From a phage: 64,000 nucleotides of DNA. The stretch lies in sequence record NC_101835.1. One strand, given 5' to 3'. Below the pieces are notes generated by a model. The model made no database searches and was not told the origin of the DNA. It was given only the letters and a program-made list of their open reading frames with translations. A program made the position numbers and the translations under genes. Positions within the stretch are counted from its first letter, which is position 1; every line of letters starts with the position of its first letter. Positions 34,805 to 57,722 of the stretch are shown one piece after another.

Positions 34805-36361
34805 TTAATTTTCCATGTTGGATATGGAATTATCTCTGGTTGATGACATCTTAGAAGTGCCGTTGCCAGTGGATCCTGCAGCCATTCCATCACCAGCCCT
34901 ACTAATGTCCTGGCCCAAGAGCTTCATCAGCTCTTCCTGATCCATGTCCTCGTCAAATCTTTCATCAAACCCGCCTACTTCAAGAATCTTATTAATTACC
35001 GCAGGAGTTTTTGGCAAGTAACCTACAGCACCGATCCTCTGGACAAACTTGGAGAAGCTCTCCATATCTACTTCTTCAATCAGACCAGGTTTCAGTTTAG
35101 GCATATCATCATCTTCAAGGATGATACCATTCAATGCCAGAAGCTGTGGAATAAGATCTTTATTGAAGGCCTCAGTGATAATATCTATATCACGCTGAAC
35201 AAAATGACCATGGATAGACTGTTTTGACTCAGACAGAGAGAAGGATCCAACGTTATCGTTACCGAGGTTAATAAAGCCAGCACCGAAACGGTCAAGAATC
35301 GCCTTCTTACGGGCATCAATCAAATCTTTAGTGGAATACTGCTTACCCATACCGTCAACCCCCTTCAGGGTCATGGAGTAAAGCTCTTTACCAGACTTAT
35401 CTCTATCAGACGGAAGTATAAAGAAACTTTGCTCACCACTATGGGCGTTTGCTGCGTCAAGCATAAGGTCTGCAACCATCCTCCCTTCCATTGAATTCGG
35501 GTCAATGCTGGCCTTGTTCAAAATATTGGAAGGAATTTTCAGCTCAAGCACACCACCAAGGTCTTTGGAACAGCCAACAACCTCAAGGTTTTCAATCAGA
35601 ACTTTCTCACGGAAAGATCTGTAGCAACCTATCATCGGTGACACACCTGCGGGGTTAGATTCTGTTCCTGACAGGGTCATGAGCATAAGCTTTTTAGCAG
35701 GGATGAAAATTTCAGGCTCATTAAAGCCTTTTGAAGGCATTGCAGCAAGAGGTCCAGCCCAGCGTGCATTCTGAGTGTTTAGAAATGCATTAGGTGATTG
35801 ATAAATACCTGTCAGTGTTCTGCTATTCTTATCAAAAACAAACGGCTCTGATCTGGACAGGCTGGCCTGAGGTCGGAATGCAATTTTATCGATAAGAAGC
35901 ATCCCGGCATATTTACCTTCTTTCTCTCTGCGGTATACTTTCTCAAACAGTGAAAAACCATACTCGTTAAAGGTAGCTGCGCTTCTTGCAATATCTCGAA
36001 GAGTTTGTTGGTTTGCCAAATTACGCAAAGAATACTCTATAAGCTCGGCAGCTTTCTTAGAGTCTTCACTTTTAACATTATAAAGGATCTTAAAATCATT
36101 GAATGCTTTCGTGATGAAAACATATTTTGTATCTAAGGCAGTAGCAACTGTGGAATCACATTTCATAGTCTCCACTGTAGCAATCAGCTGAGGCCAACGC
36201 AATTCCTCAACCATCATAGATTGCGATTCTGCCATAATTTGGGAAAGTGCGCCAGAACCGATCTCACTCATACGAACATTATGAGTTGGTGCGCCTGCGT
36301 TCCCAGATTTATTCACAGTTTTGGCTGTGGCGTTGTGTTTCCTGCGGTTCTTTTTGGACAC
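34805..36361 (-). CDS. portal protein
   Basis: 518 aa; located immediately after terminase large subunit; size and acidic C-terminus typical; GTG start with GAGGGG RBS. Confidence 0.7.
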   Translation of the reverse strand: MSKKNRRKHNATAKTVNKSGNAGAPTHNVRMSEIGSGALSQIMAESQSMMVEELRWPQLIATVETMKCDSTVATALDTKYVFITKAFNDFKILYNVKSEDSKKAAELIEYSLRNLANQQTLRDIARSAATFNEYGFSLFEKVYRREKEGKYAGMLLIDKIAFRPQASLSRSEPFVFDKNSRTLTGIYQSPNAFLNTQNARWAGPLAAMPSKGFNEPEIFIPAKKLMLMTLSGTESNPAGVSPMIGCYRSFREKVLIENLEVVGCSKDLGGVLELKIPSNILNKASIDPNSMEGRMVADLMLDAANAHSGEQSFFILPSDRDKSGKELYSMTLKGVDGMGKQYSTKDLIDARKKAILDRFGAGFINLGNDNVGSFSLSESKQSIHGHFVQRDIDIITEAFNKDLIPQLLALNGIILEDDDMPKLKPGLIEEVDMESFSKFVQRIGAVGYLPKTPAVINKILEVGGFDERFDEDMDQEELMKLLGQDISRAGDGMAAGSTGNGTSKMSSTRDNSISNMEN

Positions 36362-36463
36362 AAGCTTTACCCCTCAAAACAGTATAACAAAATAGCCCTC
36401 GTGTTAGAGGGCTAGTATCTCCGATTACTCTATTCTACCACATCTAATTAAGATTGGCAACAC

Positions 36464-37585
36464 TTAGATAAAACGCTTGAGCATAGAAGGTGATGAGATT
36501 GATGGAATCACACAAGGAAGTGCTACCTCCTCTTTCTCCAGGAAATTAATCGCAGAAGCTACACAGTCAGCCCAGTCGTCTTTTCTGTTAAATGTTGATC
36601 TTTCCCCGTTGAATTTTTCAAGTTCGGTCAGAAATGCTTCCAGAGTATCAGGATGGAAACTGGATTTTACAATCCTTACCATTCCTTGTTGGGCAAGATT
36701 GGCAAAAGGTGAGAACCTTGTCAGTTTAGACTTGTTGGAAGGCATTGGGTCTTCTTCAACCCTAAACCCTTCGGCAAGCAAGGATCTGGAGGAGGTTAAG
36801 AACTCACTCTTACCTGCCTGACCGGGGTCCACAGAGAATACGATTATACAATCATCACCATCAAACTGCGCCTGTTTCCTGATGATCACATCTCGTTCAC
36901 CAGCCTTTTTACAGAACTTACCTTCCAGACCTGTGGAATACCTCCCGTTATCCACGTTCTCAGGACAATAATCACCGGACAGGTAATAAAAACCGTCGCT
37001 ATCTTTACTTACCTTAATACTGGCAGTAAAGTCAGGAAATTTATTACCGGAAGTTCTCTCGGTTCCTGCCTTATCCCATGCCCTGCAAGATACTGACCCA
37101 AGAGGTACTCTATCGGCATCACGAAGGAAAGATCTTTGAAAATAGTTTGCACCCTCAGGCTTTGCAAACCAGTTACCATGGAGAAGCTGAGCTTTTTCCA
37201 GCTCTGGTAGACCTTCGAGGAAAGCAAGGTATTCTGGGTTGTCTCTCAAACAGACAGGATTATCGAATATTGTTGCGCCTATGAACGAGAATGACAACGG
37301 TCTTGGCTTGATCTCTACGCCAAGTCCGTTAACCGTGGTGTATTTCTCTATCAACTCTTCTTTAGAGTCTCCCCAGATAAATTCACCGTCGCGTCGGATA
37401 AAATATCTTTTCTTACCGCATTTCTCCGGATCTGGATACCCTTCATCGTCCAACCACCATCTAACCAGTTTGGCAAGCATGTGTTCTGAATCGGGGTTAC
37501 AGCTGATAACCATTCTTGATGGATACTTTGACTGAGATCGCAGACGAGACATCAGATAGTCTATCTGCTCCCATTCGAATTGTGT
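36464..37585 (-). CDS. terminase large subunit, exon 2 (motif III and nuclease domain)
   Basis: Frame is open 33 nt upstream of the track ATG back to a TAA; contains RMVISCNPD (ATPase coupling motif) about 26 aa after the Walker B of exon 1 when joined; C-terminal Asp-rich nuclease-like region. Confidence 0.65.
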   Translation of the reverse strand, partial: TQFEWEQIDYLMSRLRSQSKYPSRMVISCNPDSEHMLAKLVRWWLDDEGYPDPEKCGKKRYFIRRDGEFIWGDSKEELIEKYTTVNGLGVEIKPRPLSFSFIGATIFDNPVCLRDNPEYLAFLEGLPELEKAQLLHGNWFAKPEGANYFQRSFLRDADRVPLGSVSCRAWDKAGTERTSGNKFPDFTASIKVSKDSDGFYYLSGDYCPENVDNGRYSTGLEGKFCKKAGERDVIIRKQAQFDGDDCIIVFSVDPGQAGKSEFLTSSRSLLAEGFRVEEDPMPSNKSKLTRFSPFANLAQQGMVRIVKSSFHPDTLEAFLTELEKFNGERSTFNRKDDWADCVASAINFLEKEEVALPCVIPSISSPSMLKRFI

Positions 37586-38468
37586 CGTTTATGTTCGGGC
37601 AAGGTCGCTAGTCTTGCCCCGCCATTTTCAGGCAGCTGCATGTCTCCATGCAGACCAGACTATATCTTATGAATGTGTAAATACTCTGCCGCTCTAAGAA
37701 TAGTTTCCTCATCCTCTTGGAAGAAACCTAAAGCTCTGTTGCATTTATCACAAAGCAACCCTCTTACAGCACCAGTTTTATGGTCATGATCAACACAAAA
37801 GAAATCTCTATACCCTTGCGTCCTATACTCATCAAGGGATATTCTACAAATGGCACACTTATGATCTTGATCTGAGAGTAGACGATAGTATTCATCTTTT
37901 GTTATGTGAAATTTCTTCTCAATCTGATAAAACTTTTCACACATCTTACACCTGTTCGTAACCAGATATACTTTACCATAGTCACGTTTTGTGTAAAAAC
38001 TATCAGCGAGCATACTTTCATGACAAGATTTGCATTCAAAAAGTTCACCTTTCTTCAGCAAGTCTTGAATAAACAATGCTGCGTCATCTCTCTTAACCAT
38101 ATTTTTGTTTTTACGAGATCCACCCTTCCTGTAGTACATATAGCATTCCTTGCATGTACCTGAGTATCCATCCTTGCTCTTAGATGATAAAAAGAAATCA
38201 TCAATAGGTAGAACTCTTTGGCAATCCATACATTTTTTAGTATTACACATTCACCCTCCCGTTTCGAATCGCTTGATTCTACGTCTTTCGACTAGTCGTT
38301 GAACGTTCATCCTCTCGGATGCTTCGCTGCGGATTATCTAAATTAACACACTGTTACCATACCTTCGATCTCTCTTCGAAGCCTCTGTCATGTTACCATG
38401 GCAGGTTGGTGGTGTCAATAATAAAGATTTCCCCGCAATTAGGGAGGTTTTACGAGAGCTACAAATTA
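37586..38468 (-). mobile_element. group I intron interrupting the terminase large subunit gene
   Basis: Minus strand carries all four core elements in canonical order: P AATTGCGGGGAAA (38428-38440), Q AATCCGCAGC (38326-38335), R GTTCAACGACTAG (38290-38306), S AAGATATAGTCTGG (37655-37668), then a P9-like hairpin GGGCAAG..CTTGCCC. Exon 1 ends in U, intron ends in G. Exact splice sites inferred. Confidence 0.75.
37660..38250 (-). CDS. intron-encoded homing endonuclease (endonuclease VII / His-Cys type)
   Basis: 196 aa in the P8 position between R and S; C-terminal DHDHKTGAVRGLLCDKCNRALG matches the T4 endo VII signature; several CxxC pairs; GGGAGGG RBS; stop codon lies inside the S element. Confidence 0.7.
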   Translation of the reverse strand: MCNTKKCMDCQRVLPIDDFFLSSKSKDGYSGTCKECYMYYRKGGSRKNKNMVKRDDAALFIQDLLKKGELFECKSCHESMLADSFYTKRDYGKVYLVTNRCKMCEKFYQIEKKFHITKDEYYRLLSDQDHKCAICRISLDEYRTQGYRDFFCVDHDHKTGAVRGLLCDKCNRALGFFQEDEETILRAAEYLHIHKI

Positions 38469-38894
38469 ACCCTCATCGAAGCAAACCATGGTGTACTCAA
38501 GCCCCTGATGGTTAAGCTTATCTTGTACATACTCCATATGGCAGTATTTTACAACAGCTCCCTTTTTGCTTCTATCCCACTTGCCAGTGTTCGGATCAAA
38601 CCGTGGAAAAATGAACTTATGATCCTTCTCTCTGAACTTTGGCTTAATGTTTTCAGGCAGATCACTATAAATAGCTACTGCTTTAGGCCATAGTCCACCC
38701 TCACCTTCCAACTGTGGGGTTGTTCTTCGGAACATAACCACAGAGCTGTGGGGGTCATCAATAATTTTAAGTGGCATCAACTGCAAGAGGAACGACTTGC
38801 CAGACCCTGCGGCACCGCCGATTACCAAAATATCTGCATCGTTTTCGAGGATCATCTTCTGCTTTTCAGAGCACGGTCCGTAAATCTTAGACAT
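38469..38894 (-). CDS. terminase large subunit, exon 1 (ATPase Walker A/B)
   Basis: Walker A GGAAGSGKS and Walker B MVCFDEG; frame is closed by a TAA immediately after the Walker B, which is where the intron begins. Confidence 0.7.
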
Positions 38895-39181
38895 TAACCT
38901 CTCTCCTTTGGAAAAAGTGTTCTAATATAGTCTTGCAAAATGATCAATTTAGCTCTATCATTGCTACAAGACAGATTATTATCCCTCATAATGCCAGAAT
39001 TTACTGCATCTGGCGCACCTTTCTTCAAAGGCATAGCTTTAGCAGGTGGTTTCATGGCACCTTCTGGGGGTTTAACAATCAACCTTCCTACATCTGGAGG
39101 GTCAATCTTGTATTCTTTCTCAACACTGGTTGCACACCCACATAATAACAAGCACACAATAAACAGTGTAGCAACTCTCAT
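38894..39181 (-). CDS. o-spanin (outer-membrane lipoprotein, Rz1-like)
   Basis: 95 aa; signal peptide with LLLCGC lipobox-like motif, Pro-rich mature part, C-terminal Cys; 4-nt overlap with the preceding gene. Confidence 0.55.
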   Translation of the reverse strand: MRVATLFIVCLLLCGCATSVEKEYKIDPPDVGRLIVKPPEGAMKPPAKAMPLKKGAPDAVNSGIMRDNNLSCSNDRAKLIILQDYIRTLFPKERG

Positions 39182-39576
39182 CGACCCTCCTGATTGATAC
39201 TCTCATTATAAATATCTATAAGCTGATCAGGGAGTGTTGACTTCTTACCCTCAGGGGATTGGAGGTAAATAATCTGCTTTTCTTTACCTGCCTTCTCAGC
39301 CATATTTAATTTATCCTGTAGGTCAGAAAGTGATTTTTCAAGGTTTTTAACCTCCTCTGCGTGGCCCATTTTAACTTTGTCGGCCTGCTTTTGTTGCTGA
39401 TCAAGGATCCGTTCCCACTTCAACTCTGTTGCTAACACACCTTCTTGGTAGGCTTCATTAAGCTTAGAGTTAAACCAATACACGGCCCCAAGATAAGCTG
39501 TACCTATCGCAGCTGCAAAAAATAAACCTTTTATGATCCCTTTATACCTACTCAGCCATGTTAAAACTGAAATCAT
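39178..39576 (-). CDS. i-spanin (inner-membrane, Rz-like)
   Basis: 132 aa; N-terminal TM helix GIIKGLFFAAAIGTAYLGAVYWF then coiled-coil periplasmic domain; overlaps the o-spanin start. Confidence 0.55.
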   Translation of the reverse strand: MISVLTWLSRYKGIIKGLFFAAAIGTAYLGAVYWFNSKLNEAYQEGVLATELKWERILDQQQKQADKVKMGHAEEVKNLEKSLSDLQDKLNMAEKAGKEKQIIYLQSPEGKKSTLPDQLIDIYNESINQEGR

Positions 39577-39595
39577 TTTAAGGCTCCAGAAACGA

Positions 39596-39632
39596 AAAAA
39601 CCCCGCAGCTATACAGCTAACGGGGCGGGTTA
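39596..39632 (-). terminator. rho-independent terminator
   Basis: CCCCG..CGGGG stem with inner hairpin followed on the minus strand by TTTTTT. Confidence 0.45.
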
Positions 39633-39681
39633 AAATTGAGTAACCTAAATAGATCGAAACTAACTAAAAGGAGACTAATAC

Positions 39682-51150: not shown

Positions 51151-51433
51151 GAAACCTGCAAAAGAGAAATTTGATAAGACAGCTTTTGTATTCGATACAC
51201 CTCTGGACGATATCATCAGAGGTATGCAAGCCTTGTATCGGAAGTCTGAATCTGAGCAGTTGTCGGAATCAGAGCTTTACTGGTTGGGTTGGTGGGAGCT
51301 TAATCTACCTAAAGCTGAAAGCTCTGATCTAAAAACCGTTAAAACGTGTGCCCAAGAAAATGCTGCACTTGGAATTTACCACAAAAGAAAAAGATCAACA
51401 AAAAGCTCTCCAAGAAAGACTAAAAAGTCTTGA
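51143..51433 (+). CDS. hypothetical protein
   Basis: Track ORF trimmed to ATG (MAKKPAKEK...); basic C-terminus. Confidence 0.35.
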   Translation: MAKKPAKEKFDKTAFVFDTPLDDIIRGMQALYRKSESEQLSESELYWLGWWELNLPKAESSDLKTVKTCAQENAALGIYHKRKRSTKSSPRKTKKS

Positions 51434-51459
51434 CAAATGAGTCTCTGATCTGATATTAT
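51430..51459 (+). promoter_or_regulatory. sigma70-like promoter with extended -10
   Basis: TTGACA - 18 nt - TGaTATTAT, about 35 nt upstream of ATG 51493. Confidence 0.5.
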
Positions 51460-51492: not shown

Positions 51493-51801
51493 ATGCTTAA
51501 AATTTTTATTGTTGAAGATAAAGATATCGTCCAGTTGTATGCACATGAGAATCACAAAGGTATGATTCTGAAGAAGGCAAGCAACCTTCATGAAAACACA
51601 ATTCAACCTGGCGATGTAATTAAGATCTGTGGCTATCTGATACCAGACTCCTTGATGAAAATAACCCACCACTGGGGGTCTAATCCGTTCCTTTTTGAAA
51701 AGTATTGGGATGTTGAGTCACTTATTGCAGAAAGTGATGATGCATTTCATTACAGCATCCAACCATCTTGCAGAGTAACTAACAGGAGGGGCTTTGAGTA
51801 G
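51493..51801 (+). CDS. hypothetical protein
   Basis: 102 aa; AGGAGAA RBS; first gene after the promoter. Confidence 0.4.
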   Translation: MLKIFIVEDKDIVQLYAHENHKGMILKKASNLHENTIQPGDVIKICGYLIPDSLMKITHHWGSNPFLFEKYWDVESLIAESDDAFHYSIQPSCRVTNRRGFE

Positions 51802-52933
51802 AGAATATCCACTTATTGAATCTGTAGATTGTCTTGCTGATCTTCTCGAACCTGACGCTATAGTTTATTATGACTTCGACCAGGTTGCATATCAAGCTGC
51901 GGCAAGTTGTGAAAAAAGGACAATTGAGGTAACACACAAAGCCTCCGGACGCAAGAAGATGTTTAAAACACGAACAGAGTTCTGGGGGCGGCAGAAGAAC
52001 ACCGTTGGTGGTTGGTTAAAAGCTGAGAATACCAACCGTGAAGCCGCATGTAAAAAGGCTGGAAAGGAGTTTATTCCGTGGACACGCGAAGATTTCGATG
52101 TCTTGGATATCCAAACCCCTGATCCTGTAGAGAACTGCTTACACACAATTAAGTGTAAAGCTAATGCAGTTCTTAACTATCTAGGTATTCCGGAAGAGCG
52201 ATGTGTCGGGGTGTTGGGAGGCACAGGTAACTTCAGACTAGATCTTCCAATGCCGGAAAGATACAAAGCCAACCGTAACAATACTCTTCGACCACTGCTG
52301 CTTGGAGATGCAAGACAGTATCTACAAAAGCAGTATAATGCTCAAGTGATCAACGGTATCGAGGCTGACGACTGGTTAGCTATCCAGCAATTTGAAGGTT
52401 GGAACCACTACCAAAAAACAGGTAAGTTCAACAAGTTTATTATCTCTATTGATAAGGACCAAAGAACACTACCGGGGCTTGTGTTCGATCCCATGCGAAA
52501 CGATAAGGGAGATTTTGTAAGGGAAACCCCTATGCTGATCGATAACGGTATGGGGAACATCTTCATGAAGCCTAATGGAGAGGTTGGTGGTTACGGAATG
52601 CTGTTCTTCGGATACCAAATGCTGTGTGGTGACTCTGCTGACAATATCAAGCCGTATCAAGGACTTATCGGTAAGGGTAAGTTCGGGGATGCCTCAGCAT
52701 TCTACCTACTGTCTCAGTGCAGCACTCCAAAGGAGATGTGGGTGGCTATTATTGATCAGTACAAGAAGTGGTTCCCGAAAGGTGTTGTTAAGTATACTGA
52801 CTTCAATGGTGTTGATCGTAGAATTTCCGTAGGTCAATGGATGAGTATAATTTTTGACTGTTTGTATATGAAGCGAACATTCAATGATCAAACAAAACTT
52901 GTTAACGTTCTTAGAAATGTTGGAGCAATTTGA
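51794..52933 (+). CDS. 5'-3' exonuclease (T7 gp6-like, FEN/PIN fold)
   Basis: 379 aa; ERYKANRNN, GIEADDWLA, ISIDKDQRTLPG and LCGDSADNIKPYQGLIG parallel T7 gp6 (YKANR, EGDDVMG, ISCDKDFKTIP, IKGDITDGYSGIAG; from memory). TTG start per track. Confidence 0.7.
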   Translation: MSREYPLIESVDCLADLLEPDAIVYYDFDQVAYQAAASCEKRTIEVTHKASGRKKMFKTRTEFWGRQKNTVGGWLKAENTNREAACKKAGKEFIPWTREDFDVLDIQTPDPVENCLHTIKCKANAVLNYLGIPEERCVGVLGGTGNFRLDLPMPERYKANRNNTLRPLLLGDARQYLQKQYNAQVINGIEADDWLAIQQFEGWNHYQKTGKFNKFIISIDKDQRTLPGLVFDPMRNDKGDFVRETPMLIDNGMGNIFMKPNGEVGGYGMLFFGYQMLCGDSADNIKPYQGLIGKGKFGDASAFYLLSQCSTPKEMWVAIIDQYKKWFPKGVVKYTDFNGVDRRISVGQWMSIIFDCLYMKRTFNDQTKLVNVLRNVGAI

Positions 52934-53265
52934 TGACTAAAAATTCTGTAGATAATGCAATTATGGAAGCTGTTTTTGAGGATGATCATACAACAGGGAC
53001 CATTAAAACAAAAAATACATTTATTGTTGCCACAGGTATGTGGCGGTTGTACGAAGATGACACCATTTCATACATCCTGTACACGGATGATTACGCAGAT
53101 GACCGTGTATGGTCTGCTGTTTTAAAAGAGGATTGTGAGCTGATTGAGGGCGAGCGGTTATGCATGTTCACCAGTGTGGAAACAGATGTTAAGCTTTGCT
53201 CTCTCGTCCTGTTCAAAGATAAGGCTTATGCTCCTGATGAAGGAGAGGAGGATGAGGAAGCATGA
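52933..53265 (+). CDS. hypothetical acidic protein
   Basis: Track ORF trimmed to ATG overlapping the exonuclease stop (TGATG). Confidence 0.35.
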   Translation: MTKNSVDNAIMEAVFEDDHTTGTIKTKNTFIVATGMWRLYEDDTISYILYTDDYADDRVWSAVLKEDCELIEGERLCMFTSVETDVKLCSLVLFKDKAYAPDEGEEDEEA

Positions 53266-53891
53266 GAGAGCGTCTATTATCCATAGACCAGTCGTTGACA
53301 CACACAGCTTGCGTTGTATGGGACGATGGAAAGCCTGTTCACAAGGTTGTGTTACGAACTCAAAGCTCATCTGCAAAAGAGAAGAAACCAGGGACGGTTT
53401 CTTTTGCAACAGCTGCTGAGCGTATTGACTGGATCTGCAAACAGGTCAGATATTATATCCACACGCACCACGTTGACACCGTGGTTATGGAAGGGCTTTC
53501 CTTTGGATCACGCGGGGATGCCACACGTGAACTGGCTGGGTTGTTTTACGGTCTCGAAGTTATGCTTTGGGATGCTTTAGCTGATTGTGAAAATGACGGC
53601 CTGTTTAAGGTTCACACAGTGACACCAACAACTGCCAAAAAGTTTGCTCGTAGTCATCTTCCTGAGGAACTTGCTTTTGAGGAGAAGAAAAAGCTTGACA
53701 AAAGGACAGGTAAAGAGCATACTGTGAAGAAACCTGTTACGATGGATAAAAAGTTGATGGTTAAGGCCTGCGAAGTATCTGAACCTGGGTTCCTAGATGG
53801 GATCAATTTGGTACAAGGTAAGGCCGATCTTGCAGATGCTTATTGGATAGGCAGGGCGCATCTGGAGGGATTATCGCAAAGCGTAAAATAA
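53262..53891 (+). CDS. RuvC-like Holliday junction resolvase
   Basis: 209 aa; N-terminal LSIDQSLTHTACVVW (RuvC-like catalytic Asp), VMEG, and C-terminal DLADAYWIGRAHL resembling the RuvC D-A-x-D-A motif. Confidence 0.5.
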   Translation: MRERLLSIDQSLTHTACVVWDDGKPVHKVVLRTQSSSAKEKKPGTVSFATAAERIDWICKQVRYYIHTHHVDTVVMEGLSFGSRGDATRELAGLFYGLEVMLWDALADCENDGLFKVHTVTPTTAKKFARSHLPEELAFEEKKKLDKRTGKEHTVKKPVTMDKKLMVKACEVSEPGFLDGINLVQGKADLADAYWIGRAHLEGLSQSVK

Positions 53892-54448
53892 GAAAGAAAG
53901 CTGTCAAAGCTCCCGTTCATAACGGGTGGTTAAAAGATTCTAAGGACATAGCCAACTTTCGAAAAGAATTGTCAGAGGAGCAGGATGGTCTTGATCCAAT
54001 CTTGTGCGAGCCACTTCGTAAGCCTTGTTTAGATCATGATCATCTGACTGGTCGTTGCAGGGGTGTTTTGTCTCAATGCACTAATACCTTTGAGGGGTAT
54101 GTGCTTAAATACTGGATGAAATACTGTAACGAGTATACAGATTGCAGTTTATCAGAGGCGTTGCGCCGGATGGCTGACTATTTGGAGAAAGACTACAGCG
54201 ACTTCCCGCTCCACAAAAACTACAGAGATGATATGACAAAGTTCTTGAGGAGATGCTCTAAAGCTACGATCATTGCACGAGCAGAATCAGATCTCAATCT
54301 TGTCATTAATCCGGAGTGCACCAAGCATGAGGCTATTGAGTTCTACATGCAGGAGTTTATAAAGAAAACTGAGGAGAGAGATTTCTATGGGGATGAAAAA
54401 GGTATTCAATCCTTGCGACTCAGTCCTGATCAGGATGAAATACCGTAA
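53843..54448 (+). CDS. endonuclease VII-like protein (His-Cys box)
   Basis: 201 aa; CEPLRKPCLDHDHLTGRCRGVLSQCTN matches the T4 endo VII N-terminal signature; TTG start per track, overlaps upstream gene by 49 nt. Confidence 0.55.
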   Translation: MDRQGASGGIIAKRKIRKKAVKAPVHNGWLKDSKDIANFRKELSEEQDGLDPILCEPLRKPCLDHDHLTGRCRGVLSQCTNTFEGYVLKYWMKYCNEYTDCSLSEALRRMADYLEKDYSDFPLHKNYRDDMTKFLRRCSKATIIARAESDLNLVINPECTKHEAIEFYMQEFIKKTEERDFYGDEKGIQSLRLSPDQDEIP

Positions 54449-54608
54449 CTGGAAAGGTGTTGTTGCAGATCGCTGCGTTACTGAGCCTAATTTATGGTTT
54501 GGCTCTACAGAGTATCATAAAGAAGAGCAGTGGTTGATGCGTGCCTTCGATGTAGACAAGGGCGAATATCGTGACTTCGCTTTAAAAGACATTCTTCAGT
54601 TTTACTAA
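54387..54608 (+). CDS. hypothetical protein
   Basis: 73 aa; ATG with GAGGAGAGAG RBS; overlaps the preceding gene in another frame. Confidence 0.25.
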   Translation: MGMKKVFNPCDSVLIRMKYRNWKGVVADRCVTEPNLWFGSTEYHKEEQWLMRAFDVDKGEYRDFALKDILQFY

Positions 54609-54620
54609 GGAATCTTAACG

Positions 54621-55604
54621 ATGATGACAAAGTTAACTCTTGAGCAAATTTTAACACTAAAGCAACAGGGATACACTAATAGACAAATTGCTCGTGAATT
54701 TTTAGGCCGTGAGTCACGTGAGAGCTGGATCCGACTACAGCTTAAACGTGCACAAGAGAATATGTCAGAGATTGTAGGAGAAGCAACGGAGCGCTTCCTT
54801 GAAGAGCACAAAGGCGCTAAAGTTTGGGTGTATGATACAGAGACATCCCCAACAAACGGCTGGTTCTTTGGGCACTATAAGACCAACATTCAAACCTGTG
54901 GTATTGAAGTTATGCCTTATATGCTAACTTTCGCAGGTAAGTGGTTAGACAGCCCTAGTGTGGTTGACTGCGCTCTTCCCGATTACAAAATGTGGGATGA
55001 GGATATTCACAATGATCTCGAATTGATTCAGGATTTGTGGTATTATCTGGATAAATGCGATGTCGCAGTAGTCCACAATTCAGGTTTTGACTGCGGGTGG
55101 GCCAACCAACGATTTGCATTTCACGGGTTGCCTCCAACAAGCCCCTACAAAGAGGTTGACACCCTTAAAATGATCAAGAAGGCATTCCGTTTGAATGCAA
55201 ACACTTTGGAGTATGCATGCAAATACTTCCAACTGGCCAGACAGAAACTGATTGATCACACATTTGAAATGTGGATCAAGTGTGTCCATGGCGATCTTGA
55301 GGCATTTAAACAGATGCGGGAGTATAATGTTGGTGATATCCTGTCTCTGGAAGGACTGTATTTGCTGGCTCGCCCGTTTGCTAAGCAGCACCCAAACATG
55401 TCATTGTACTACCAGGACGAGGAGCCAAAGGTTCGTTGCCCACGCTGTGGTGGAGAACACCTTCACGAGGAAGAAGCTTTGGCATATACTCAGCTGAGTG
55501 CATTTAAAACATACCGCTGCGAAGGTTGTGGATCTGTTGTTCGTGACCGTAACAACATCCGTACCAGAGAAGAAATGAAAAACACCCTGATTCAGATAAT
55601 CTAA
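54621..55604 (+). CDS. DEDD-family 3'-5' exonuclease with C-terminal zinc ribbon
   Basis: 327 aa; Exo I VWVYDTETS, Exo II VVHNSGFDCGW, Exo III EYNVGDI; C-terminal CPRCG...CEGCG; N-terminal TNRQIAREF helix-turn-helix-like segment. Confidence 0.65.
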   Translation: MMTKLTLEQILTLKQQGYTNRQIAREFLGRESRESWIRLQLKRAQENMSEIVGEATERFLEEHKGAKVWVYDTETSPTNGWFFGHYKTNIQTCGIEVMPYMLTFAGKWLDSPSVVDCALPDYKMWDEDIHNDLELIQDLWYYLDKCDVAVVHNSGFDCGWANQRFAFHGLPPTSPYKEVDTLKMIKKAFRLNANTLEYACKYFQLARQKLIDHTFEMWIKCVHGDLEAFKQMREYNVGDILSLEGLYLLARPFAKQHPNMSLYYQDEEPKVRCPRCGGEHLHEEEALAYTQLSAFKTYRCEGCGSVVRDRNNIRTREEMKNTLIQII

Positions 55605-55611
55605 CAATTAT

Positions 55612-55640
55612 AGGGAGGCTTGCGCCTCCCTTTTCCTTTT
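55612..55640 (+). terminator. rho-independent terminator
   Basis: GGGAGGC-TTGC-GCCTCCC followed by TTTTCCTTTT, directly after the stop at 55604. Confidence 0.5.
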
Positions 55641-55649
55641 GGAGGCACT

Positions 55650-56468
55650 TTGAGCAAGAAAGAGTCCAACGACAAATATTACACAAACCCTGAGTATGCA
55701 GAATATCTTGTTGGTAAAGTAAAAGATAAGTATGGGAATTGTGCATACGTTGAGCCTTCTGCTGGAAGGGGTTCTTTTTCAAAACTATTTTCAGAGATAC
55801 TGTCGTACGATTTAGTACCAGATCCTGAATTTGAAGGACCAACACCGTGCATTCAGGCAAACTTCTTGGAGGTTCATCCCAAGGCAGATGTCTTCATAGG
55901 TAACCCACCATTTGGCAAGAATTCATCTTTAGCTTGCAAATTCTTCAACCATTGTGCATCATTGCTAGAGCTTGGAGGGGCTATAGCCTTCATCTTGCCA
56001 CGGACATTTGAAAAAATATTTTTTGCAAACAAACTGGACATGTCGATGCACCTTGTCTACAGCGAAAGGTGCCCTAAGAATTCGTTTTTACTTAATGGCA
56101 AACCTTATGACGTGCCATGTGTTTTCCAAATTTGGGAGAAAAAGGAGTGCAATAGGGATCCTGTAGAGATTGGGGAGAATAGGTTATTTTCTTTTAGCAC
56201 TCCAGATGACTACGACTTCTGTGTAAGACGTGTTGGGTATAATGCTGGAAAAGTATTGGGGGAGGATGACCCAAAATCTGAAGAATCAACATATTTCATA
56301 AAATCTTTAGTTGACGGTGTTGACAGAGTGTTTGCTGAATGCTATTCTTCCTTTCAAGAAGAAGCAGGTAAGACTGCCGGAATGAAGAGTATAGGTAAGA
56401 AAGAACTACAATACATTTTGGAGACTAGGTATGATCAAAAGCATAGACTTGACCAAAGAACTTACTGA
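55650..56468 (+). CDS. N6-adenine DNA methyltransferase (orphan)
   Basis: SAM motif I VEPSAGRGSF followed by catalytic motif IV NPPF; probable TTG start at 55650 with GGAGG RBS (track ORF begins upstream inside the terminator). Confidence 0.6.
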   Translation: MSKKESNDKYYTNPEYAEYLVGKVKDKYGNCAYVEPSAGRGSFSKLFSEILSYDLVPDPEFEGPTPCIQANFLEVHPKADVFIGNPPFGKNSSLACKFFNHCASLLELGGAIAFILPRTFEKIFFANKLDMSMHLVYSERCPKNSFLLNGKPYDVPCVFQIWEKKECNRDPVEIGENRLFSFSTPDDYDFCVRRVGYNAGKVLGEDDPKSEESTYFIKSLVDGVDRVFAECYSSFQEEAGKTAGMKSIGKKELQYILETRYDQKHRLDQRTY

Positions 56469-56889
56469 TGCAAAAGCTTTTGGTGAGACAGCGGTACAAA
56501 GGGGGCAGGCGATGGGACTGGCACTACCTTTCGTCTTAAAAGAGCACTTTACAGATTTTCAACTTATCAAGGGCGATAAGGGAATGCTTATCCTGGAGCA
56601 TAAGTTGAGTAAGAAACGCTACAAAGTTGTTTTTAATTCTAAAGCTCCAACAAAACTTGGATTCAGAACTTACAATCTCAACCCATCCTATACTAAGGGT
56701 GTTGGAAGGGTAGAACAACAGCATTTCAGTGCTAGAGCTTCTTTAGCCCCTTTGATGCTAAATTTCTCAGGGGTGGCTTTAGGATACCTTGACAAGAAAA
56801 GAGTTCTTCATGTCCGTTTCACAGACTTTGTAACGCTTTTAGCTAACAACGAAGTTGATGAAAAGGGACGTGTAAAAACAAACTTCTAA
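56431..56889 (+). CDS. hypothetical protein
   Basis: 152 aa; ATG with GGAGAC RBS, overlaps the methyltransferase 3' end. Confidence 0.35.
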   Translation: MIKSIDLTKELTDAKAFGETAVQRGQAMGLALPFVLKEHFTDFQLIKGDKGMLILEHKLSKKRYKVVFNSKAPTKLGFRTYNLNPSYTKGVGRVEQQHFSARASLAPLMLNFSGVALGYLDKKRVLHVRFTDFVTLLANNEVDEKGRVKTNF

Positions 56890-56916
56890 TAACGCATAGT
56901 ATGATTGGAGACCGCA

Positions 56917-57108
56917 ATGACACTAAAGTTAACAATTCCAGACAGCTTTTCAGAAAACTTTATCCCAGAAATGATGGGTAAGATGCGATCATTGCTTGAT
57001 CAGATTGAGGAAGCTGTTTGGGAAGACGATGCTGTAGTGGCTAACGAGCTGGTAGATAAGTGTAAAAGTATTATTGATGCAGTTGAAGAATACCACGGAG
57101 GTTTTTGA
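56917..57108 (+). CDS. hypothetical small acidic protein
   Basis: Track ORF trimmed to ATG (MTLKLTIPDS...) with GGAG RBS. Confidence 0.3.
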   Translation: MTLKLTIPDSFSENFIPEMMGKMRSLLDQIEEAVWEDDAVVANELVDKCKSIIDAVEEYHGGF

Positions 57109-57722
57109 TGGATATTATTGTTCTTAACGCCCCACCCAGCAGTGGTAAGGATCACATTGCAGATCTCTTGTTGGAAGCTATTCCTAACTCACACCACCGT
57201 GAGGTTAAGGAGATGCTCTTCAGTGTGGCAATTAAGGGAGCTGGCGTAACTCCTCAACTCTGGAATGCACTTTATGACCGCCACTACAAAGAAGAGCCTT
57301 GCCCTTTCTTAATGATAGACGGCAAGCATGTTTCTCCGCGAGAATGGATGATCCATTGTAGTGAAAATCTGATTAAACCTATCTTTGGTGAAGATGCTTT
57401 CGGTAAAGCCGCAGTCGCATCTTTGAAGAAAGATTTCCCTAAAGGTAAAGGGGTTGTTGTTTACTCCGATGGTGGATTCAAAGAGGAGCTGGCATGCCTT
57501 AGCGAGTACGCGTACAGCACAGGTGGAGATCTGTTGTTGTTCCGTATTCACCGTGTCGGATATGACTGGGGAAATGATTCCAGAACCTATCTAAGTCTGG
57601 AAAAGAACGGAATAAAAGGAATTGAGTTCGATGTTGTAAACCCTGAAGGTGCACCTTGGGAATGTGCATCGGAGATTGTGTGCAAGTATATTGATGCTAA
57701 AGAGGCCCAAGAAGAATGTTAA
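57108..57722 (+). CDS. putative deoxynucleoside monophosphate kinase
   Basis: Track ORF trimmed to ATG (MDIIVLNAPPSSGKD...); P-loop NAPPSSGKD resembles the phage dNMP kinase signature; neighbours are nucleotide-metabolism genes. Confidence 0.45.
   Translation: MDIIVLNAPPSSGKDHIADLLLEAIPNSHHREVKEMLFSVAIKGAGVTPQLWNALYDRHYKEEPCPFLMIDGKHVSPREWMIHCSENLIKPIFGEDAFGKAAVASLKKDFPKGKGVVVYSDGGFKEELACLSEYAYSTGGDLLLFRIHRVGYDWGNDSRTYLSLEKNGIKGIEFDVVNPEGAPWECASEIVCKYIDAKEAQEEC

Follow-up and report, generated by a model that had tools for sequence, protein, structure and literature searches.

A probable AUC start codon for the endonuclease VII-like gene in a conserved nuclease cassette of Vequintavirus

Introduction

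The stretch of DNA analysed here, 64,000 nucleotides (nt) of a phage from sequence record NC_101835.1 (hereafter the window), carries between positions 53262 and 55604 a tight group of genes for recombination and repair nucleases. This group raises the question of whether its genes truly overlap as far as their open reading frames (ORFs) do and, in particular, where translation begins in the second of them, which encodes an endonuclease VII (Endo VII)-like protein. The initial annotation, made from the DNA letters, had placed in this group ORFs at 53262-53891 (209 amino acids, aa), 53843-54448 (201 aa, from TTG), 54387-54608 (73 aa, from ATG) and 54621-55604 (327 aa). All of these positions are correct and, judged from their sequences, all the listed ORFs are real, conserved genes and not chance ORFs. 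In this report, we describe the group and argue for an AUC codon as the most likely start of the Endo VII-like gene.

By its nucleotide matches, the window is that of a Vequintavirus, an rV5-like myovirus of Escherichia coli. A megablast search with positions 51500-57500 matched 120 phage records, 119 of them at a query cover of at least 80%, and nearly all of them were Escherichia Vequintavirus (rV5-like). Escherichia phage I29 (ON286975.1) is 100% identical over 53262-55604, and identity exceeds 94% in more than 100 GenBank records, whose annotations contain the same genes. The names given to these genes vary: in MaxTheCat/Bas57, the RuvC-like gene and the 73-aa ORF are each called 'hypothetical protein', and the other two are a 'packaging and recombination endonuclease (EndoVII)' and a 'DnaQ-like 3'-5' exonuclease'; in MiataMamis, the names are 'RuvC-like Holliday junction resolvase', 'endonuclease' and 'DNA polymerase exonuclease subunit'. 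The nuclease gene block is ordinary and already in the databases; being routine and well populated, it changes little as it stands, and the comparative case for a conserved AUC or AUA start is its sole new element.

Start codon of the endonuclease VII-like gene

The two genes and the translation signal concerned are as follows.

53262..53891, plus strand: RuvC-family Holliday junction resolvase-like gene, 209 aa (phrog_159 'RuvC-like', E = 6.7e-39)
53873..54448, plus strand: Endo VII-family (beta-beta-alpha-Me/HNH-type) gene (PF02945), 191 aa from the putative ATC start; annotated as 53843-54448 (201 aa, TTG)
53864-53869 and 53873-53875, plus strand: putative Shine-Dalgarno sequence GGAGG(G), followed by an ATT spacer and the ATC start, inside the 3' end of the RuvC gene

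From its TTG, the Endo VII-like ORF overlaps the RuvC gene by 49 nt (53843-53891), which the initial annotation had taken for a long gene overlap. As ORF geometry this stands; as a true overlap of genes it does not, the comparative start lying 30 nt downstream at the near-cognate ATC, and the 49-nt overlap is probably an artefact of ORF calling. In this genome, TTG-53843 is the sole canonical start to precede the conserved N-terminal region; it is used by most GenBank annotations of rV5-like phages and is conserved in the closest relatives, and all of this would favour a 201-aa protein and a real overlap. However, it shows no pairing with the anti-Shine-Dalgarno sequence (+0.3 kcal/mol), and it is the only one without any pairing among 17 neighbouring annotated starts; in the genome of rV5, a GGAGGT-like site has been described before almost every ORF (PMC3606486). 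Moreover, in phage B9-1, in the metagenomic contig L096 and in L009/L090, all of them rV5-like, the fourth codon of the TTG ORF, three codons on from the TTG, is an in-frame TAG, and the peptide is unchanged from residue 11 on despite this stop. In B9-1 and L096, the next canonical start lies so far down that the conserved WLKDSKDIADFRKE segment would be lost. Other genera have no codon equivalent to this TTG, and we consider it unlikely to be the true start.

ATC-53873, by comparison, pairs with the anti-Shine-Dalgarno sequence at -9.8 kcal/mol, within the top 2% of positions. Two other near-cognate codons, ATT-53870 and ATA-53888, were set aside for their weaker pairing (-6.0 and -3.1 kcal/mol, respectively); in the case of the former, the codon before the ATC also varies across lineages.

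For the comparison of start sites, 57 loci were collapsed to 18 lineage clusters. The codon aligned with ATC-53873 is ATC in 10 clusters, ATA in three, GTG in three and ATG in two, and it is never another codon for Val, Leu or Thr. The whole arrangement, consisting of a GGAGG (or GGGGG) motif, a spacer of 4-6 nt, the start codon and a basic tail, is kept in all 18. Where the codon is GTG or ATG, annotators have begun the protein at exactly this point, as in phiTE (GGAGGG-TATTA-GTG-GCA). The GGAGG motif is also kept in L032 and L033 despite their different RuvC C-terminus, where it encodes Q-E-A and not L-E-G, and it persists while the RuvC stop shifts from -2 to +16 relative to the start codon. 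Scanning viral contigs for exact matches to the junction pattern yielded only two loci and added little.

The basic stretch could alternatively be an untranslated leader, only a shorter protein being made from a downstream canonical codon (here TTG 53969; in Seunavirus and Mydovirus the annotated GTG, 44 nt downstream of the RuvC stop). Such a downstream GTG is used in the GenBank annotations of BIS47 and EspYZU15, many lineages have a canonical codon just before a conserved Trp, and gene 49 of T4 reportedly yields two nested products (Barth et al. 1988). However, the 'intergenic' stretch of Seunavirus and Mydovirus contains no stop codon in the Endo VII frame and codes for a basic peptide of related sequence, and its substitutions follow a protein-coding pattern. 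Among seven distinct sequences, the variable sites number 0, 2 and 9 at codon positions 1, 2 and 3 (p = 0.0014, binomial), with eight synonymous-only against two non-synonymous codon columns, and neither of the two control frames has a third-position excess. This excess argues that the stretch is translated. In Certrevirus, the basic tail is the annotated N-terminus itself, and four clusters, together with B9-1 and L096, have no canonical start before the Trp. As for TTG 53969, it has no Shine-Dalgarno pairing (+0.1 kcal/mol), and the conserved WLKDSKDIANFRKE segment would be lost from a protein starting there. We regard the production of the shorter protein alone as quite improbable.

The Endo VII frame is -1 relative to RuvC wherever the two genes adjoin, and it is open upstream of the RuvC stop. 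This would also suit a programmed -1 frameshift near the end of RuvC, leading to a RuvC-Endo VII fusion in which GGAGG acts as a stimulator and not as a ribosome-binding site, and weakly slippery runs (G GGA, A AAA) are indeed found in some lineages. However, there is no conserved slippery heptamer (X XXY YYZ), and BIS47, L010, L018 and L019 are devoid of even the weak runs; no stable downstream RNA structure is predicted (fold z = -0.40); in L025, no room is left for a frameshift, since the frame is closed by a TAA two codons before the ATC; and at the exact position Certrevirus, L022 and L027 carry a canonical codon (GTG or ATG), with a different upstream gene or none, the Certrevirus gene being expressed separately. 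The fusion was rejected on the missing slippery site and structure, the L025 stop and the canonical starts of Certrevirus, and we give it hardly any credence.

The start at ATC-53873 is further characterized by its position relative to the upstream gene. In the ATC and ATA lineages, the upstream stop is mostly situated between -2 and +16 nt relative to the start, or at +31 in L103, whereas in the lineages with a canonical start it is found at -14 or beyond +53. This contrast suggests a termination-reinitiation coupling to RuvC. Translation of the Endo VII-like gene would most likely start at AUC-53873, resulting in a 191-aa protein and a RuvC overlap of 19 nt. For the large clade formed by the Vequintavirinae and their uncultured relatives, we lean towards a gene read from a conserved AUC or AUA, coupled to RuvC and expressed at a very low level.

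Several points weigh against this start. AUC and AUA are very weak starts in E. coli, where they do initiate, with Met, at about 0.02-3% of the level of AUG, and AUU alone is confirmed as a natural non-canonical start in this bacterium (bioRxiv 10.1101/063800). An in-frame canonical TTG is available in this phage, and several lineages have a canonical GTG just before the conserved core, which makes nested or alternative products possible. In addition, GGAGG also encodes the EG of the RuvC C-terminus in most lineages, which may explain part of its conservation. A literature search on AUC starts in phages and on resolvases in Vequintavirus returned nothing directly relevant, and no prior report of a conserved AUC or AUA start was found in it.

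If the AUC is the true start, the start of this gene is wrong in more than 100 GenBank records. Public records call it in three ways, namely from the TTG, from a downstream GTG or, in B9-1 (L092, OQ420740.1, 1209-1487), as a 92-aa C-terminal fragment from the first ATG, and probably none of them is right. Gene callers limited to ATG, GTG and TTG can produce spurious long overlaps. It would also represent a rare natural and evolutionarily conserved AUC/AUA start in a system infecting E. coli, where only AUU (infC, pcnB) is established, and it would offer a clean natural system in which to test near-cognate initiation and translational coupling in phages of this bacterium.

The endonuclease VII-like protein

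The family assignment of the Endo VII-like protein made by the initial annotation is borne out by profile and motif evidence, as are those of the RuvC-like protein and of the stand-alone DEDD exonuclease with its zinc ribbon. PF02945 matches the protein with E = 1.5e-7 and 31.6 bits, against a cut-off of 23.6, and likewise for the 191-aa version, and the structure of T4 Endo VII, 1e7d, matches it with E = 3e-4. In an alignment with T4 and three genera, the catalytic residues D64, H65, D66, H67, N81 and E84 (201-aa numbering) are invariant. The protein carries a basic N-terminal tail, including AVKAPVHNGWLK, and has no CxxC pairs, the positions of the T4 cysteines aligning to D, L, S and T; its own scattered cysteines are not conserved across lineages. 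By these features, it is a zinc-less variant of the family with an added basic N-terminal tail.

The initial annotation had also set this protein apart from an intron endonuclease of the same type, and the two are indeed distinct: the latter lies among pieces of the terminase gene, at 37660-38250 of the minus strand. This intron-type ORF encodes 196 aa, belongs to the Endo VII family with both CxxC pairs intact, and is flanked by 36464-37552 and 38466-38894. An intron homing endonuclease in the terminase large subunit has been described for rV5 (PMC3606486). A megablast search with 35500-40500 matched 610 phage records, far above the approximately 120 Vequintavirus records, including Tequatrovirus, Shigella and Yersinia phages at 95-99% identity. 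Part of this stretch is thus common to T4-like phages as well.

The RuvC-like protein

A Pfam scan of the RuvC-like protein returned no family at E <= 0.1, PF02075 included, and a sequence search against the PDB found nothing; precomputed matches to PF02075 exist for the distant homologues P0028 and P0030 only. Since the Pfam and PDB sequence searches were empty, the RuvC identity was settled by structure prediction and fold search. The AlphaFold model, built from 21 homologues, reaches a predicted local distance difference test (pLDDT) score of 92 and a predicted template modelling (pTM) score of 0.88. Its top 10 Foldseek matches in the PDB are RuvC proteins of Thermus thermophilus, Deinococcus radiodurans and Pseudomonas aeruginosa (E = 1e-7 to 7e-5), and RuvC of E. 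coli and of Lactococcus phage bIL67 are also matched (1e-7 to 5e-4 overall). The best of these matches have a target-normalised template modelling (TM) score of 0.71-0.76. Across the 21 homologues, conservation of D9, E77, D189 and D192 is complete or no lower than 90%. On this model, the protein has a RuvC fold, and its membership in the family points to a role in the cleavage of junctions.

The 73-residue protein and the stand-alone exonuclease

Downstream of the Endo VII-like gene, the group is completed by two more genes.

54387..54608, plus strand: conserved gene of 73 aa (phrog_3715, E = 2.6e-26), starting at ATG, with a GAGGAG Shine-Dalgarno sequence at 54371-54376
54621..55604, plus strand: DEDDy 3'-5' exonuclease, 327 aa (phrog_403, E = 1.1e-109)

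The 73-aa ORF, which the initial annotation had noted as overlapping the Endo VII-like gene in another frame, is a real one by its PHROG match, its conservation and its ATG with a ribosome-binding site. The protein has 23 invariant columns across four genera, and the anti-Shine-Dalgarno pairing of its start is -9.2 kcal/mol. It is possibly SH3/WYL_2-like, the WYL_2 match being below threshold. Its overlap with the Endo VII-like gene, 62 nt here (54387-54448), is genuine and variable in length, ranging among relatives from 8 nt (phiTE) through 20 nt (BIS47) and 32 nt (FV3 and L009, whose Endo VII genes end ten codons earlier) to 80 nt (EspYZU15). The sequence of the small protein is conserved and the C-terminal tail of Endo VII is not. 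The annotation of EspYZU15 omits this conserved small ORF (L006, 3380-3616), which lies between Endo VII and the exonuclease.

The exonuclease has the motifs Exo I (D72/E74) and Exo II (N153/D157), invariant among homologues, and Exo III (Y235-N-x-x-D239, that is, Y235-x3-D239), conserved among the full-length ones, and a conserved C-terminal zinc ribbon (C273-x2-C276 ... C300-x2-C303). By these motifs, it is of the DEDDy subtype, and not a true DnaQ, which is of the DEDDh type. The NCBIfam equivalogs of DnaQ fall far below their cut-offs (27.3 against 196 bits for NF004316 and 23.5 against 222.7 for TIGR01406), and RNase_T of Pfam is below its own (18.7 against 24). The top Foldseek matches are the exonuclease domains of DinG, family B polymerases and DnaQ (probability 0.99-1.0, E ~1e-3, model pLDDT 64); the model is of only moderate confidence because just nine homologues were retrieved. 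The initial annotation was right on the DEDD 3'-5' family and the zinc ribbon, and the helix-turn-helix-like N-terminus that it had added is weak (Pfam E = 0.03-0.09, with three predicted N-terminal helices). With tblastn, the family was found in 1,527 phage records, and relatives, which usually have the C-terminal zinc ribbon, are present in mycobacteriophages and in phages of Pseudomonas, Vibrio (ICP1) and Xanthomonas.

The exonuclease and the polymerase

The initial annotation had seen no polymerase in the window, had proposed to look for one in the rest of the genome, and had considered that the exonuclease might prove to be the N-terminal part of a polymerase interrupted by a frameshift. 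There is indeed no polymerase in the window, where tblastn with the polymerase of MaxTheCat gave a best E of 1.3. In the collinear genome of MaxTheCat, the polymerase lies at 67370-70423 and the exonuclease gene at 119357-120340, approximately 50 kb apart. The polymerase is of the T7-like family A, and its N-terminus matches the exonuclease domain of T7 gp5 (pairwise E = 3e-6), including the D-x-E and HN...YD of Exo I and Exo II. Parts of the T7 gp5 sequence used in this comparison agree with the alignment from another search. A split polymerase was rejected, given that the exonuclease gene is followed by a terminator and then a methyltransferase gene, that the window holds no polymerase, and that the polymerase is encoded elsewhere with an exonuclease domain of its own. 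The frameshift scenario is thus excluded.

The name 'DNA polymerase exonuclease subunit', used by PHROG and in GenBank, implies that the DEDDy exonuclease acts in trans as the proofreading subunit of the replicative polymerase. DEDDy chemistry is typical of polymerase-associated exonucleases, the protein matches the exonuclease region of the phrog_17 polymerase profile, and its modelled fold matches the exonuclease domains of family B polymerases. However, Exo I and Exo II are both retained in the T7-like polymerase itself, and the exonuclease gene sits with recombination nucleases, far from the polymerase gene; the name itself is an unverified annotation. Exonuclease and polymerase have no detectable sequence similarity (BLASTP of the exonuclease against the polymerase N-terminus), and the case for their paralogy is that both match the same part of phrog_17, and nothing else. 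A proofreading role in trans is, in our opinion, doubtful, and the name fits poorly in a phage whose polymerase has its own exonuclease domain. Because the polymerase keeps these motifs, the stand-alone exonuclease would be an additional enzyme; it is neither a frameshifted polymerase fragment nor obviously a missing proofreader.

The MaxTheCat polymerase (MZ501094.1 67370-70423; L004 28371-31424) is joined from ORFs of 809 aa and 118 aa, approximately 270 nt apart, which points to an intron or other interruption near its 3' end. Polymerase introns have been documented in the related phage CB7 (PMC7344957).

Apparent transcription unit and gene order

Further upstream and downstream of the nuclease genes, the following elements were identified.

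51430..51459, plus strand: candidate sigma-70-like promoter (TTGACA, 18 nt, TATTAT, with an extended -10 TG; 11 of 12 consensus matches)
51794..52933, plus strand: FEN/5'-3' exonuclease-like gene, 379 aa (phrog_107 'exonuclease', E = 2.6e-71)
52933..53265, plus strand: small conserved ORF (phrog_7583, E = 4.8e-57), annotated in relatives
55612..55640, plus strand: candidate intrinsic terminator immediately 3' of the exonuclease stop codon, with an 8-bp stem (6 G-C pairs), a loop of 4 nt and a T-tract

The promoter-like site, which by consensus match alone scores best within the scanned region, and the terminator bracket an unknown ORF, the FEN-type gene, the small ORF, the RuvC-like and Endo VII-like genes, the 73-aa ORF and the DEDDy exonuclease. 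The FEN-like gene, labelled as a 5'-exonuclease in MaxTheCat, is a fourth nuclease of the apparent unit, just upstream of the three named by the initial annotation. The stop of the small ORF and the start of RuvC overlap in an ATGA (53262-53265), and the 3' bases of the FEN gene overlap candidate starts of the small ORF at 52930-52933; such short overlaps between neighbours fit translational coupling along the whole operon. On the other side of the unit, the longest ORF of the methyltransferase begins at TTG 55620, within the terminator hairpin, and the start given in GenBank, TTG 55650, has a GGAGG upstream (-9.3 kcal/mol) and is the credible choice.

The stacking of nucleases noted by the initial annotation is no peculiarity of this genome, as the cassette is conserved throughout the phage subfamily and beyond. 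Local profile searches found the order RuvC, Endo VII, small ORF and exonuclease in 17 of the 18 lineage clusters, including Seunavirus, Mydovirus, Certrevirus and several uncultured lineages where Endo VII is only about 41% identical. By this conservation of order, the stacking is an old, conserved cassette. The strict order of these four genes, kept down to about 40% protein identity, suggests that their products act together.

Insertions into the cassette leave its order intact in Certrevirus, where they add a phrog_12410 gene between RuvC and Endo VII and an HNH gene, 'EndZ', between the small ORF and the exonuclease; in phiTE (L008), the insertion regions are 1115-1666 and 2403-2939. The first of these genes, phiTE_168, was considered as a possible RuvC fragment and ruled out, as it belongs to the unrelated family phrog_12410. 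In this genus, where the upstream neighbour is no longer RuvC, the start of Endo VII is canonical (GTG or ATG). In L010 (3428-4486), with an Endo VII about 79% identical, the homologue of the small ORF sits in an open frame of approximately 350 codons, and a fusion or an insertion may therefore have occurred between this small gene and that of the exonuclease. In the unrelated 40-kb podophages Kurepalu-1 and Ihaste of Pseudomonas putida, a homologous exonuclease gene adjoins an annotated endonuclease VII, and this adjacency hints at a wider functional link between the two enzymes.

Proposed function of the locus

We consider it likely that the locus is the 3' part of a conserved Vequintavirinae transcription unit dedicated to replication and recombination intermediates, with AUC-53873 as the likely start of its Endo VII-like gene; the biochemical roles, the operon structure, the use of the AUC and its coupling to RuvC termination are what we infer here, from gene identities, a RuvC fold, a conservation of motifs and gene order, a pattern of start-site codons across lineages and a coding signature that are shown by the data. 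According to this proposal, the FEN-type protein, the small protein, the RuvC-like protein, the zinc-less Endo VII-like protein, the 73-aa protein and the DEDDy exonuclease would be produced from one promoter-to-terminator unit. Genomes of the Vequintavirinae are circularly permuted (PMC7344957), a feature implying that concatemers are packaged by the headful mechanism. On the model of T4 and other phages with recombination-based replication and headful packaging, the RuvC-like and Endo VII-like nucleases may debranch the concatemeric DNA before or during packaging and, again as in T4, may also act in recombination-dependent replication. Removal of primers and 5' flaps would fall to the FEN-type enzyme, and trimming of 3' ends to the DEDDy exonuclease. 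Ribosomes that terminate at the RuvC stop, 16 nt further on, would assist initiation at AUC-53873, four bases after the GGAGG, and such a start would keep a potentially toxic nuclease deliberately low and tied to the synthesis of RuvC.

Some considerations reduce the confidence in this picture as a whole. The zinc site, which is structural in T4 Endo VII, is absent from the protein described here, so that the resolution of junctions would not be assured. The biochemical roles follow from family membership alone, the promoter and the terminator are consensus matches, and the exonuclease model has the moderate pLDDT and the Foldseek E values given above.

Comparison with known systems

As a piece of DNA, the locus is the same as the nuclease block of the public Vequintavirus genomes (rV5, FV3, I29, MaxTheCat/Bas57, MiataMamis), with identical or more than 94% identical sequence and the same ORFs already named. 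No difference in sequence separates it from these records, and only the reading of the Endo VII-like start codon is different.

The RuvC-like protein shares with RuvC of bacteria and of phage bIL67 (4ep4, 4ld0, 1hjr, 4ktw) the RNase H-like fold, with TM scores of 0.69-0.76, and the four conserved acidic residues in the expected order. However, it is approximately 50 residues longer, with insertions at roughly residues 36-50 and 131-160. The exonuclease resembles the phrog_403 family of 'DnaQ-like / DNA polymerase exonuclease subunit' proteins, and the DEDD exonuclease domains of family A and B polymerases and DnaQ, in its three Exo motifs and possibly, by its model of moderate confidence, in an RNase H-like exonuclease fold. 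It departs from true DnaQ in having Tyr, not His, in Exo III, and in this phage it coexists with a polymerase that has its own exonuclease domain.

With respect to T4 Endo VII (gp49; PF02945; 1e7d/2qnc), the alignment of the Endo VII-like protein spans the catalytic core and the C-terminal helical domain (T4 residues 37-147), and the equivalents of T4 D40, H41, H43, N62 and E65 are invariant in the family described here. Contrary to T4 Endo VII, this family is devoid of the four zinc-ligand cysteines (C23, C26, C58 and C61 in the T4 numbering) and has the basic N-terminal tail in addition. A complex, nested translation has likewise been reported for gene 49 of T4 (Barth et al. 1988). The Endo VII-like gene lies directly 3' of a RuvC-family gene, whereas T4 has no such RuvC-family gene.

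The closest counterparts of the proposed start are the AUU codons of infC and pcnB in E. coli, which likewise combine a near-cognate AUN start with a Shine-Dalgarno sequence and with low, potentially regulated expression (bioRxiv 10.1101/063800). Here, the codon would be AUC or AUA and not AUU, and the case for it is comparative alone. Furthermore, contrary to the autoregulation of infC by IF3, the Endo VII-like start is located inside or at the end of the upstream gene, a position that suggests coupling through termination and reinitiation.

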